From Escherichia phage EPIMRB01, in sequence record PQ657784: DNA of 64,000 nucleotides, one strand, 5' to 3'. Position numbers and translations under genes: made by a program. Positions 15,965 through 20,739 of the stretch are shown here, in pieces (within the stretch, counting starts at the first letter, position 1; the number at the start of each line of letters is the position of its first letter). The notes under the pieces were generated by a model, which saw only the letters and a program-made list of their open reading frames with translations, had not been told where the DNA came from and did not search any database.

Positions 15965-15968
15965 CAAT

Positions 15969-15998
15969 GGGGACCTTTCGGTCCCCATATTTTTATTT
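15969..15998. terminator. Stem-loop terminator after gene 54
   Basis: GGGGACC-TTTC-GGTCCCC followed by ATATTTTTATTT. Confidence 0.65.
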
Positions 15999-16314: not shown

Positions 16315-16344
16315 ATTATAACACAACACGAGGGACTTGTAAAC
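16315..16344 (-). promoter_or_regulatory. T4 early-type promoter
   Basis: Minus strand GTTTACA, 17-nt spacer, TATAAT. Confidence 0.6.
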
Positions 16345-18401
16345 TACATCTTGAACTTTTTAGACATTCCGTTGATGTTAACCAAAGAAGCCAAGATTTG
16401 AGAAACTTCGTTTTCCTCTTCTTTTGATTCTTCTACAAGGAATTGATTAAACCCAGCCATTGGACGAACTTCACCAGTTTCCATTAGATGATCGCCATCA
16501 TATACCGATTCTTCTAATTGTTCAGAAGGAGGAACGATTGTGCCTTCGATTAGATACTTGTTATAAGCAGTTTCTTTCATCATGTACGTGCTTACTTTAT
16601 TAATCTTCAACAAAATTCCACGCGGTAGAATAACTTCAGCTTCTGATGGAAATCCTGATAAATGACCTGGAACGATAACTTTGATTCGCTCAGCCCCTTT
16701 AATTACCATACCTACACTAGTTTCAGCATCTTCATTAGCATATGCAGAATGACTACCCATATGCATTAAATCTTCGGCATCAACGGAACCTTCTCCTTCA
16801 CCAGAAAATACTGCACCGGAATCATCTAGAGCCATATAGTTTTTACCATGCTCACCGAAGATATTTGGTTTAAGCGATGTTGATACGAAGTTCTTGAAAT
16901 AGAACATTTTATTTTCAATATTATGGCGTAAAGTTTTAAAAGTAACTTCTTGACCACGATAAAGCGTAGTTCCCGGAGGAAGAACTGATCCTTTGGCGAA
17001 TGCAGAATCCATTGTCTCGATGTGTTTAATAGCTCGTTCCATGTATTCTTCACGGGTAGAATCTGGTTTACCTAAAAGGAACGAGTTCATTTCAACATAT
17101 GAATCTGCACAATAATCTTCAATTACATCAGACTCAGCCTGAGTCAGTCCTTTTGGAGTTACTTCGGTGCTTGCGTATTCATATGCCTGAGCAGCAGATT
17201 CATTAATCAATTTATAAATGCCATTCATGACAAATTGAATAATAGCTACCTTTTCGTCTGGCGTGGCTTTAGAACCTTTAACTAAATCATTGATAATTTT
17301 CTTAATAACATCAAAGCTATTAGAAATATTAATGTCAGCGAGATCGCTCAAAATTTTATCTGTTTTATAATCAAAGAATTCTTTATTCTTTAAATATTCT
17401 TGAGAACCTTGATGTGTTATATCGCTCTGCAGTCTGATAGACGGATCACGTAAACGCGCATGGGCCAATGCAATATGATTTCGGAAGCTTTCTAGTTCAT
17501 AATCGTTAGATTTAAAACGAGAAGCACTTCTCATACCACCGATAGCTCCTTTGCCGAAGTTTGAACCAATCTGAATAACGCCAGAGTTCATTGGTCCTTC
17601 TGCTTTATATACCGGAACTTTAGATTCAAACTCTTGATATTTCTTAGCAGCGAAGCTATCGCCCTGGAGTGAAGCATCGACAGTAGAATATTGAGCTTGT
17701 GCTGCTAATCGACGACTAATTTTAGTTTTCTGAATAACAGCTTGATCCGTGCGCTTATCATTTTCTAAAGCAATAGAAGCAGCAACAGCAACAGCTTTAG
17801 GAACAGCATTACCTGTTTTGACATCTACATAAACATCACCAACCTTTGATTCAACTTTTGTGAATAACTCAGTTGAAATAGGAGGTACACCTGGAATGTC
17901 TTCTAAATTGGCATTTTTACGGTAAACCATAATATATGCATACTTTTTATCGTAATCCCAGATTTCCTTTAAAAGAACATATCGACCTGCTCCTTTAGTA
18001 CGTACTAAACGGTCAGCAATAACTTGCATTTGACGAGCAGCGCCATTTGTTTTACTTTTTAGTACGCGGAATAAGCATGCATCAATTTTATACTGTTTCA
18101 TTGTTTGAAGAGCAGTATCAAAAACAGCATTAATGACACCAATTGGATTTCCACCCAAGTTTTTAAGTTTAACTAATGATAGTTTCTCATTAACACCTAT
18201 CATTACGATATGCATCATTTTATCGCCTGGCTTAACGTTTTTATTTGTATCACCGCCAGAGGTGTATGTACAAAATCTAAATCCAGGAAGCACGCTTTCT
18301 TCACCAGCTTGAATAGCAAAAATTTGAGGTATTTTATGCTTAGGATTTAAGTTAACAACCGGCGCCGAAGCGCCGTCAAATAATTCTGTAATAAGTTCCA
18401 T
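16344..18401 (-). CDS. Alt-family ADP-ribosyltransferase paralog
   Basis: 685 aa; N-terminus MELITELFDG..PQIF..GFRFCTYTSGGDTN shared with Alt; C-terminal R-S-E triad motifs LYRGQ, NFVSTS, SEAEVILPRG; SD AAGGA; 3 nt after alt stop. Confidence 0.85.
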   Translation of the reverse strand: MELITELFDGASAPVVNLNPKHKIPQIFAIQAGEESVLPGFRFCTYTSGGDTNKNVKPGDKMMHIVMIGVNEKLSLVKLKNLGGNPIGVINAVFDTALQTMKQYKIDACLFRVLKSKTNGAARQMQVIADRLVRTKGAGRYVLLKEIWDYDKKYAYIMVYRKNANLEDIPGVPPISTELFTKVESKVGDVYVDVKTGNAVPKAVAVAASIALENDKRTDQAVIQKTKISRRLAAQAQYSTVDASLQGDSFAAKKYQEFESKVPVYKAEGPMNSGVIQIGSNFGKGAIGGMRSASRFKSNDYELESFRNHIALAHARLRDPSIRLQSDITHQGSQEYLKNKEFFDYKTDKILSDLADINISNSFDVIKKIINDLVKGSKATPDEKVAIIQFVMNGIYKLINESAAQAYEYASTEVTPKGLTQAESDVIEDYCADSYVEMNSFLLGKPDSTREEYMERAIKHIETMDSAFAKGSVLPPGTTLYRGQEVTFKTLRHNIENKMFYFKNFVSTSLKPNIFGEHGKNYMALDDSGAVFSGEGEGSVDAEDLMHMGSHSAYANEDAETSVGMVIKGAERIKVIVPGHLSGFPSEAEVILPRGILLKINKVSTYMMKETAYNKYLIEGTIVPPSEQLEESVYDGDHLMETGEVRPMAGFNQFLVEESKEEENEVSQILASLVNINGMSKKFKM

Positions 18402-18404
18402 GAT

Positions 18405-20498
18405 TTATCCTTGAACGAACTTGTAAGGCATGTTTGTAATATCTATGCAAGACGCAATAATTCCAAGAGATGATTCTACTTTCTGTTTAACATTTGATGA
18501 AACAAATGATGCAAAATCAACTCTGTCTTCTATTTCAATATCACCTGTCATTGCAACTACTTCACCAGTTTCCATTAGACGGTCACCGTCATAAATTACT
18601 GATTCGGTGAGTTCTTCCGTAGTCATAACTTCAGCTTGAATGAGTTTTGTATTATTAGATGTTGTTCCGTCATTATTAGAAGCATCAGTTATTTTATTAA
18701 CTTTGACCATCAATCCGCGTGGTAGAATAACTTCAGCTTCTGTTGCTATTCCGAGACTTCCTGGATATACAACATTAACTTTATGAGCTCCATCAATTGC
18801 CCATCCTATTTGAACTTTAACGTATTCAGGATTTTCTTTATACGCTCTTATTTCATTTGGATTAATAGTTATTCCTTCTTCATTTTTATCAACTGTCAAT
18901 TCATTACGAGCTTCTGGTTCTAAAAGACCAATACCAGCATGTGTAATTCCAAAACGTCCAAAAATGATAGGAGTTAAAGAAGTAGATACAAAATTTCTGA
19001 AATAGAACACTTTATTTTTAACTAGTGCTTCGTATATAGGAGCAGTCATACTTTGAGCACGATAAACTGTAATGCCTTCTGGTATACGGTCACCATTTTC
19101 AAAAGCTGAATCTAAGTTATTTATAGCAGATTCAATTTCTTTTTCACTCATTACATCATATCGTTCTGGATTGTAGCGTCCTAAAAGAAGATTATTGATG
19201 TCAGTATATCCTGAACCGCAATACTCTCTAATGCCGCGCTTTTGTGATGGAGTATATTTAGAACCATCACGGGCAATAGTAATATCAATCATTGGACCTG
19301 CACCAATTCCAGAAAAGCTATAAATCATTCGTTTGAGGAATTTAGTTTTTGCTGCGTTCCAGGAATTTTTAGTTATTTCTTCCCAGACTTCATCTGGCTG
19401 TCCTTTACGGGTTTTATTATGTTTATCAAGCCAATTATCTTTATATTCTTCAAAGAGTTGATTAACAGCTGCTGCGTATTTTTCTAAACATTTTATTGAA
19501 GTAGTTGGTTCATTTTTAATCGCATTAAGAATTACATCTTTAATTTTTTCAGAAACTTCACCAACCTCACTCATTGGAAAGAATTTATAGTCATAATGAA
19601 GTTCATCTGCAGTTCCTTCAGCAATAATTTTTGCTGCCTTAGTTTTAGAAGCTAATGAATTAATTCCAAGCTTCATTTCTTCTGCTTCGGGAATTAAAGG
19701 AGCTGTAGCAGGTTTATTGAAATTAGCTGCGGTAGATTCATACTTTTGGAATAATTCACTTTCAAATCTAGAAGATTCCAATGACTGACTTTGTGCAATT
19801 GCTCTACGGGAAATTTTAACTTTAACGATTACAGCTTGGTCAGAACGTTTATCGTTTTCTTGTGCAATAGATGCGGCAATTGCCTCATTTTTAGTTACTT
19901 GAGCTCCGGTATCTTTATTGATATAAACATCACCGACCTTCGATTCAACTTTAGTAAAGAGCTCGGTACTAATTTCAGGAACTCCTGGAATGTCTTCTAA
20001 TGATACATTTTTGCGATGTATAAGAATATATGCATACTTTTTATCGTAATCCCAGAGTTCCTTAAGAAGGACGTATCTGCCACCTGAACGACTACGGATA
20101 AGTCTATCAGCAATAAGTTGAATTTGACGAGCTTGACCAGCAGTTTTAGACTTAAGAATACGGAGCATACAGGCATCAATTTTATACTGACGCATCGTCT
20201 GCATCGCAACAGTAAAAACTGAATTGATGTAATTAATTGGGCTTGGACCGAGACCTTTTAATTTAGCAATTGAACCTTTGGCAGTTAATGTAAAAGGAAC
20301 AATATGCATCATTTTATCGCCCATCTTTAAATCGCGATTAGTATCACCTCCAGATGTATAGGTACATAAACGAAAGCCTGGTTGTTCAATTGCGTCATCA
20401 ACATGAACTGAAAAAATTTGCGGTATTTTCTTCTTTGGATTTAAGTTTGTAATCGGAAGAGTAGTATCTTCGTCAAATAATTCTGTAATGAGTTCCAT
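18405..20498 (-). CDS. alt: Alt ADP-ribosyltransferase (capsid-packaged, injected)
   Basis: 697 aa from second ATG (MELITELFDEDTTLPITNL...), colinear with T4 Alt; ART motifs YRAQ, NFVSTS, EAEVILPRG. Confidence 0.9.
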   Translation of the reverse strand: MELITELFDEDTTLPITNLNPKKKIPQIFSVHVDDAIEQPGFRLCTYTSGGDTNRDLKMGDKMMHIVPFTLTAKGSIAKLKGLGPSPINYINSVFTVAMQTMRQYKIDACMLRILKSKTAGQARQIQLIADRLIRSRSGGRYVLLKELWDYDKKYAYILIHRKNVSLEDIPGVPEISTELFTKVESKVGDVYINKDTGAQVTKNEAIAASIAQENDKRSDQAVIVKVKISRRAIAQSQSLESSRFESELFQKYESTAANFNKPATAPLIPEAEEMKLGINSLASKTKAAKIIAEGTADELHYDYKFFPMSEVGEVSEKIKDVILNAIKNEPTTSIKCLEKYAAAVNQLFEEYKDNWLDKHNKTRKGQPDEVWEEITKNSWNAAKTKFLKRMIYSFSGIGAGPMIDITIARDGSKYTPSQKRGIREYCGSGYTDINNLLLGRYNPERYDVMSEKEIESAINNLDSAFENGDRIPEGITVYRAQSMTAPIYEALVKNKVFYFRNFVSTSLTPIIFGRFGITHAGIGLLEPEARNELTVDKNEEGITINPNEIRAYKENPEYVKVQIGWAIDGAHKVNVVYPGSLGIATEAEVILPRGLMVKVNKITDASNNDGTTSNNTKLIQAEVMTTEELTESVIYDGDRLMETGEVVAMTGDIEIEDRVDFASFVSSNVKQKVESSLGIIASCIDITNMPYKFVQG

Positions 20499-20521
20499 CA
20501 TATCCTCTCTAGTGTTTATTC

Positions 20522-20529
20522 TATTTATA
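20522..20529 (-). promoter_or_regulatory. Late promoter TATAAATA for alt
   Basis: Minus-strand TATAAATA about 24 nt upstream of alt ATG; consistent with alt being a late, packaged protein. Confidence 0.6.
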
Positions 20530-20534
20530 AAATT

Positions 20535-20552
20535 AAAGGCCCGAAGGCCTTT
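20535..20552 (-). terminator. Stem-loop upstream of alt
   Basis: AAAGGCC-CGAA-GGCCTTT overlapping the stop of the 62-aa ORF. Confidence 0.45.
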
Positions 20553-20739
20553 AATAATCTATTGGTAAGAGAGTACGGTATATTTCAAACTTTGGACCTT
20601 TTTCATAGGCATCAAATGTTTCTGTGAATTTATTATAAGCATATGCATCTATAAATTCAATCATAATTTGTGATACAGAAGTAGAAACATCTCCACCTTC
20701 TTTTTGAGCAACGACAATTGTTTCTAAGTAAGCTTTCAT
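20551..20739 (-). CDS. Hypothetical protein
   Basis: 62-aa ORF, start overlaps gene 30 stop. Confidence 0.5.
   Translation of the reverse strand: MKAYLETIVVAQKEGGDVSTSVSQIMIEFIDAYAYNKFTETFDAYEKGPKFEIYRTLLPIDY

Follow-up and report, generated by a model that had tools for sequence, protein, structure and literature searches.

The 64,000-nucleotide stretch of Escherichia phage EPIMRB01 analysed here (sequence record PQ657784; hereafter the window) carries two adjacent genes whose predicted products, AltA and AltB, are both full-length members of the Alt family of ADP-ribosyltransferases (ARTs) with intact R-S-E catalytic residues. The locus is very probably the ordinary alt locus of Tequatrovirus, with two ancient tandem paralogs that are found in most T-even phages, an assessment that extends to the proposal that both proteins are packaged and injected together and differ in their targets. 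The Alt protein of phage T4, on which the proposal is modelled, is a prohead core protein present at ~40 copies per head (PMC9026906). On infection it enters the host along with the DNA, and it ADP-ribosylates other host proteins in addition to Arg265 on one of the RNA polymerase alpha subunits (PMC2988021).

The two open reading frames (ORFs) lie on the minus strand, AltB downstream of AltA and separated from it by 3 nucleotides (nt):
18405–20498, minus strand: AltA, the upstream alt gene, 697 amino acids (aa), with matches to PF03496 and PHROG 802; named alt_2 in Escherichia phage AUBRB02.
16344–18401, minus strand: AltB, the downstream alt paralog, 685 aa, with matches to PF03496 and PHROG 802.

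A preliminary description made from the sequence alone had reported two adjacent Alt-family ORFs of 685 and 697 aa, 3 nt apart, without naming their strand, and this is confirmed by the ORFs and their stop and start coordinates: the TAA stop of AltA occupies 18407–18405 and the ATG of AltB 18401–18399, leaving 18404–18402 as the gap. An alternative in-frame ATG at 20501 would give AltA an ORF of 698 aa (18405–20501); the start at 20498 is preferred for its better-placed Shine-Dalgarno sequence and because AUBRB02 is annotated with this start. A 4.9-kb region of the window is 100% identical to that phage, in which the pair is named alt_1 and alt_2. The gene order, gp48-gp54-alt.-3-AltB-AltA-alt.1-ligase gp30, is that of T4, and the pair occupies the Alt-family position between gene 30/alt.1 and alt.-3/gene 54, with leftward transcription.

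AltA and AltB share 41% identity over their full length, and the associated E value (4e-156, BLASTP) excludes chance similarity. Both are matched end to end by PHROG 802 ('Alt-like RNA polymerase ADP-ribosyltransferase') and both match the Pfam family PF03496 (ADPrib_exo_Tox; E = 9.8e-38 and 3.2e-20 for the two proteins). Cluster representatives near AltB (99%) and AltA (95–100% by segment) carry precomputed PF26846 and PF03496 assignments, and full-length similarity places both proteins in the Alt family as delimited by PHROG 802 and by PF26846 together with PF03496. NCBIfam returned zero matches for either protein, while a sequence search of the PDB gave only weak matches to binary-toxin ARTs and found no solved Alt structure. 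AlphaFold models, with a mean predicted local distance difference test score of about 75, show the same layout in both: an alpha/beta domain at the N-terminus (up to residue ~215), a stretch made up of helices only at ~240–470, an ART beta core at ~475–625 and a disordered tail. Each protein thus appears to be built of four parts, namely a basic N-terminal alpha/beta domain, a helical middle, an R-S-E ART core of the VIP2/C3/Vis type and an acidic disordered tail, with an ART fold of VIP2/C3 type in both. The catalytic residues were placed by motif alignment:
19059–19061, minus strand: AltA catalytic Arg480 (YRAQ).
18978–18986, minus strand: AltA Ser505-Thr-Ser507.
18732–18740, minus strand: AltA Glu587-Ala-Glu589 (ExE, arginine-specific type).
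16956–16958, minus strand: AltB catalytic Arg482 (YRGQ).
16875–16883, minus strand: AltB Ser507-Thr-Ser509.
16635–16643, minus strand: AltB Glu587-Ala-Glu589 (ExE).

Across 26 homologs covering both lineages there is no variation at the catalytic Arg, at either Ser of S-T-S or at either Glu of E-x-E, and the Arg and ExE of the Alt proteins align with those of CDTa. Among C3/iota-type ARTs, E-x-E rather than Q-x-E is the arginine-specific form. Every motif quoted in the preliminary description (MELITELFD in both proteins, YRGQ/YRAQ, FVSTS and EAEVILPRG) was found, and the loss of catalytic residues that it had named as its own refutation is not seen, since careful alignment shows R, STS and ExE kept in both proteins.

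Conservation between the paralogs differs strongly by segment. Identity is 67% over the N-terminal segment (aa 1–237), which bears out the shared N-terminus first proposed, 13% over the middle (238–410), 31% over the ART segment (411–628) and 39% over the tail. The divergence of the middle is therefore as real as had been suggested, but the block measures ~175 aa instead of the ~200 aa first given:
19263–19784, minus strand: AltA middle region, aa 239–412, predicted all-helical; unalignable with AltB.
17172–17690, minus strand: AltB middle region, aa 238–410, predicted all-helical; 13% identity to AltA and no Pfam family.

Pfam searches with the N-terminal domain and the two middle regions yielded no match apart from one to CesA at E = 0.029, which was judged meaningless, and fold comparison of the middle regions gave generic helical-bundle matches only. 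A sliding identity profile reveals a further unalignable stretch of ~43 aa between the STS and ExE motifs. This segment (AltA aa 516–558, window ~18825–18953; AltB aa ~518–558) belongs to an STS-to-ExE stretch of ~80 residues and is modelled with low confidence. AltA, AltB and T4 Alt differ in this segment, which is a further candidate for determining specificity besides the helical middle region.

Packaging of both proteins is suggested by the sites at which the protease gp21 processes T4 Alt. Mass spectrometry has shown that gp21 cuts T4 Alt after ITE-6 and LTE-619, stripping 6 N-terminal and 63 C-terminal residues (PMC5694885), and the ITE-6 cleavage is also recorded in a feature note of X15811. 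The corresponding motifs in the window are:
20481–20489, minus strand: AltA codons 4–6, I-T-E, N-terminal gp21 motif; E6 invariant in 26 homologs.
18384–18392, minus strand: AltB codons 4–6, I-T-E, N-terminal gp21 motif; E6 invariant.
18603–18611, minus strand: AltA codons 630–632, L-T-E, aligned to LTE-619 of T4 Alt; E632 invariant.
16509–16517, minus strand: AltB codons 629–631, L-E-E, aligned to the C-terminal gp21 site of T4 Alt; E631 invariant.

The N-terminal MELITE is identical in the two proteins and, at the level of motifs, both carry the pair of gp21 sites (ITE-6, and L-x-E ~60 residues from the C-terminus), with predicted mature masses of 70.1 kDa for AltA and 69.1 kDa for AltB. It is plausible from these motifs that AltB, too, is packaged in the virion. 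The preliminary description had assigned packaging and gp21 processing to the N-terminal ~220 aa. The motifs of both T4 Alt gp21 sites are indeed kept, but gp21 removes just 6 residues from the N-terminus of T4 Alt and 63 from its C-terminus, and it is an assumption that the whole domain acts in packaging.

The signals that could drive expression of the pair are a late promoter upstream of AltA and a ribosome-binding site for AltB:
20522–20529, minus strand: TATAAATA, matching the consensus of T4-type late promoters, ~24 nt before the start codon of AltA.
18408–18412, minus strand: AltB Shine-Dalgarno sequence AAGGA, overlapping the end of AltA.

Across the window TATAAATA was found 11 times against 9.2 expected, so that the motif alone is not significant and it is its position upstream of alt that counts. 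Promoter and terminator scans detected neither the consensus nor a terminator between AltA and AltB. Late expression of AltB would depend on read-through from the AltA promoter, and consensus matches alone are no proof of function.

Under the mechanism that we propose, AltA and AltB would be co-transcribed from the late promoter upstream of AltA, and both proteins would be built into the prohead core. There gp21 would trim both after Glu6 and, near the C-terminus, after Glu632 in AltA and Glu631 in AltB, giving mature proteins of ~70 kDa. Both would then be injected with the DNA and, within seconds of infection, use nicotinamide adenine dinucleotide (NAD+) to mono-ADP-ribosylate host proteins on arginine, AltA and AltB modifying different, possibly overlapping, sets of host proteins. 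Alternatively, AltB could be left out of the head and act in the manner of ModA/ModB, either late in the infected cell or in the next round after new synthesis only. The absence of a late promoter of its own and of any AltB virion proteomics in our literature search, which was thin in subscription journals, would be compatible with this, yet we regard it as improbable: MELITE is identical in the two proteins, the C-terminal L-x-E has an invariant Glu, AltB and its packaged paralog share 67% identity in the N-terminal domain, and AltB starts 3 nt after a late-transcribed gene with no terminator between them.

The tandem arrangement is widespread and old. Of the 498 phage records with a match to AltB, 401 contain it at full length (at least 80% coverage, mostly at 95–98% nucleotide identity); tblastn gave 401 records with an AltB copy at no less than 90% protein identity (>=90%), and the 90% cluster of AltB holds 772 member sequences. 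T2 and T6 have a 2,094-nt alt followed by a 2,058-nt second gene, and the same pair occurs in RB7, phiD1, slur02, SfPhi01, MLF4 and ZJUN4. Outside the genus, the Dhakavirus JS10 has a tandem pair of 694 and 707 aa, again 3 nt apart. In JS10 the upstream gene shares 67% identity with AltA and the downstream one 48% with AltB, with cross-comparisons at 33–34%. Because the JS10 pair is thus A-like followed by B-like, the alt duplication predates the split between Tequatrovirus and Dhakavirus.

The pair has not escaped notice. Many records annotate 'Alt-like RNA polymerase ADP-ribosyltransferase (x2)', and Nolan et al. (2006) described T4 alt.-1/alt.-2 and ORFs of RB49 and 44RR as paralogous alt duplications, one of them full-length in 44RR (PMC1524935). 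A 2026 paper reported two Alt-like paralogs with 43% identity in Tequatrovirus 6phi13 and SHFML-11, and proposed an expanded target range (PMC13600099). The novelty of intact tandem alt paralogs that was implied at the outset accordingly falls away, as such pairs are standard and annotated in relatives and described in the literature (PMC1524935, PMC13600099). The tandem alt pair is already known and is annotated in most T4-like phages, and it is T4 that is the exception, by deletion.

At the position of AltB, T4 has only alt.-1 (61 aa, NP_049810.1) and alt.-2 (67 aa, NP_049809.1), in line with the preliminary description. The alt.-1/alt.-2 DNA of T4 is 96% identical to nt 1–357 of AltB and resumes at AltB nt 2048 with the last codons and the downstream sequence. 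The junction falls in a 9-bp direct repeat that is present twice in intact AltB:
18054–18062, minus strand: left copy of CTAAAAAGT (AltB nt 340–348), one end of the T4 deletion.
16355–16363, minus strand: right copy of CTAAAAAGT (AltB nt 2039–2047), the other end of the T4 deletion.

From this arrangement it follows that T4 lost 1,699 bp between the direct repeats. A 1-nt deletion in an A-run near AltB nt 160 accounts in addition for the split into alt.-1 and alt.-2, and the PHROGs derived from these two ORFs give AltB about double the score that they give AltA. As judged by these alignments, the alt.-1/alt.-2 remnant of T4 is what is left of a gene whose intact form is AltB. The intact second paralog had been suggested to be the ancestral, functional state, which is supported by its presence in T2, T6 and JS10 and by ratios of nonsynonymous to synonymous substitution rates (dN/dS) of 0.03–0.055. 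We also considered the opposite course of events, in which a full-length downstream gene arose by insertion into a short T4-like ORF; it is excluded by JS10, T2, T6 and the repeat-flanked junction. Notes in the sequence records give this reversed polarity, T4 being annotated as an 'old duplication of the first part of alt' and T6 as having an 'apparent insertion in alt.-2'.

AltB is under strong purifying selection. Among five Tequatrovirus orthologs its pairwise dN/dS is 0.027–0.055 at dS 0.09–0.27, all four of its segments are constrained (dN/dS 0.03–0.09 in the middle region), and the ORF does not vary in length between the five genomes. Decay towards the T4 state, or a catalytically dead duplicate, is for this reason hardly credible. 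T4, phage sutha and two contigs with hybrid genes show that the gene can be lost, but the low dN/dS refutes decay of AltB at the sequence level, and the equal ORF length in the five genomes, the full-length copies in 401 records and the invariant catalytic residues speak against it as well.

The losses themselves take several forms. Phage sutha has lost AltB independently of T4: directly behind its intact AltA only ~128 nt from the 3' end of AltB are left, and these bear the annotation of a 38-aa 'Alt-like' coding sequence. In two contigs from metagenomes or isolates (one from ENA, 110 kb; one from Logan), alt.1 and alt.-3 flank one A::B hybrid gene in place of the pair; each hybrid has an A-type N-terminus, a B-type body and one clean crossover, at ~nt 150 in one contig and ~nt 650 in the other. 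Such lone hybrid genes are as expected from unequal crossing-over between tandem paralogs. Assembly chimeras are an unlikely explanation for them: AltA and AltB have no exact word longer than 32 nt in common, neither crossover falls within that word, and the assembly behind one contig used k=99. Ongoing gene conversion at the N-terminus was rejected for six complete genomes, in which each upstream gene has purely A-type and each downstream gene purely B-type diagnostic sites; the two-piece BLAST matches that hinted at conversion are an artefact of piece joining.

Different target sets for AltA and AltB are most likely, because the helical middles are unrelated in sequence (13% identical), the catalytic domains are 31% identical and the ~43-aa insert between STS and ExE is unalignable. 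A more specific form of this idea, to which we give somewhat less than an even chance, is that AltB would be injected as a second effector and steered by its helical middle to host targets other than those of Alt, such as translation, toxin-antitoxin or defence proteins, and not to RNA polymerase alpha. It is less probable, and in our view unlikely, that AltB is functional and packaged yet largely redundant with AltA, sharing Arg265 of RNA polymerase alpha as its main target and serving as extra dosage or back-up. The arginine-specific ExE motif and overall architecture common to both proteins would fit such a role, as would the fact that T4 does without AltB and that some natural phages keep one hybrid gene only. 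The same divergence of middle, ART segment and STS-ExE insert argues against it, however; both lineages have been kept separately across genera, and purifying selection on AltB is strong in every segment, whereas redundant copies are not normally so maintained.

Several points weigh against a jointly delivered pair with distinct targets. The case for differing targets is drawn from sequence divergence, and the literature search, thin in subscription journals, found neither a proteomic nor a biochemical report on the second paralog. No late promoter was found adjoining the AltB start, the nearest TATAAATA lying at 19118–19125, ~720 nt upstream and inside AltA. Finally, since AltB has been lost independently several times (T4-type deletion, sutha and the A::B hybrids), it must be dispensable under at least some conditions.

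AltA is 70% identical to T4 Alt (NP_049811.1, 682 aa) over the full length, against 41% for AltB. Residues 1–240 differ at 3 positions and the C-terminal ~115 residues are mostly identical (99% identity in the N-terminal segment, 90% in the tail), while the central 350 aa are ~33–60% identical. With ends that are near-identical and a diverged centre, AltA is the positional ortholog of T4 Alt with a different central allele. At the DNA level AltA is a mosaic relative to T4 alt: the first ~810 nt are 94% identical, nt 808–1236 have no match and the rest is 73% identical. Its nt 502–1937 share 78% nucleotide identity with the upstream alt of JS10, closer than to T4 alt. At least two central alleles of AltA thus exist in Tequatrovirus, the type found in the window occurring in 316 of 538 records; in a spread sample of the remaining records, T4 included, mostly the ends were shared and the middle was not. 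SfPhi01 combines a T4-type central allele with an intact AltB.

The N-terminal domain, defined on AltB aa 1–237 (window 17691–18401), is rare, with matches to just 69 of 1.84 billion representative proteins; nearly all of these are ~600–712 aa long and carry it N-terminally, and a Pfam scan detected a C-terminal ART domain in eight of ten sampled proteins that have it. Exceptions with this N-terminal domain are P0184, of 541 aa and without a recognisable ART, and P0183, of 485 aa and with the degenerate catalytic motifs LYKNI, TSCS and NSEIVLPRG. A profile of the domain retrieved nothing from the PDB at E values up to 10; in fold comparisons it gives weak GNAT-like matches. The domain is basic (isoelectric point, pI, ~9.6) and the removable C-terminal tail acidic (pI 4.2–4.6). 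More speculatively, the shared basic N-terminal domain could be a dedicated head-delivery module.

The sequences flanking the pair contain further elements. Upstream of AltA, the small gene alt.1 (62 aa, 20551–20739) matches PF24647 'Phage blade protein', and a GC-rich hairpin, AAAGGCC-TTCG-GGCCTTT (20535–20552, minus strand), lies after alt.1 and directly before the AltA late promoter; it does not appear in the list from the terminator scan. On the other side, a near-consensus sigma-70 promoter (16315–16343, minus strand; TTTACA, a 17-nt spacer, TG and TATAAT, with 11 of 12 positions matching) begins immediately past the AltB stop codon, and alt.-3 (DUF5498, 96 aa) would be transcribed from it. 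A bidirectional terminator with a 9-bp stem (15967–15988) is located between alt.-3 and the convergent gene 54.

The gene pair itself adds almost nothing new, being annotated in hundreds of GenBank records and present in published genome papers, and the residual value of the locus lies in the function of AltB. T4 is atypical here in having a 1.7-kb deletion in a conserved and constrained gene that is kept in T2, T6 and most natural Tequatroviruses. As T4 deleted most of this second gene, knowledge of 'alteration' derived from T4 covers one of two ARTs of the injected type. If AltB does have targets of its own, most T-even phages would deliver two distinct ADP-ribosyltransferases at infection, and the activity of the second would have been overlooked for fifty years because the gene is deleted in T4, the model phage. 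This would be a modest extension of known biology and no new kind of system, for which T2, T6 or an AltB-restored T4 offers a ready experimental system.

Compared with known systems, AltA resembles T4 Alt in its position beside alt.1 and gene 30, its catalytic motifs and its gp21 sites, and differs in the central allele. AltB has architecture, motifs and cleavage sites in common with T4 Alt but represents a separate paralog lineage with an unrelated middle; it occupies the same place as T4 alt.-1/alt.-2, downstream of alt and upstream of alt.-3, where the gene is broken in T4 and intact in the window. The pairs of T2, T6, RB7, phiD1, slur02, JS10, 6phi13/SHFML-11 and 44RR show the same order and 3-nt spacing, with matching lengths in the Tequatroviruses, and no substantive difference from the pair described here. 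Among other phage enzymes, ModA and ModB are much smaller than Alt. They are arginine ARTs of the same Alt/VIP2 clade (PMC5512222) but, unlike Alt, they are made early after infection and are not injected from the head (PMC2988021, PMC5512222). With the R-S-E toxins (VIP2, iota, CDTa, C2, C3 and Vis) the Alt proteins share the ART fold and the R / S-T-S / E-x-E site at 10–26% identity. They differ from these toxins in having an N-terminal domain of their own (PF26846, Tevenvirinae_ADPRT) and a helical middle, and in being delivered by a phage head and not through a toxin pore.

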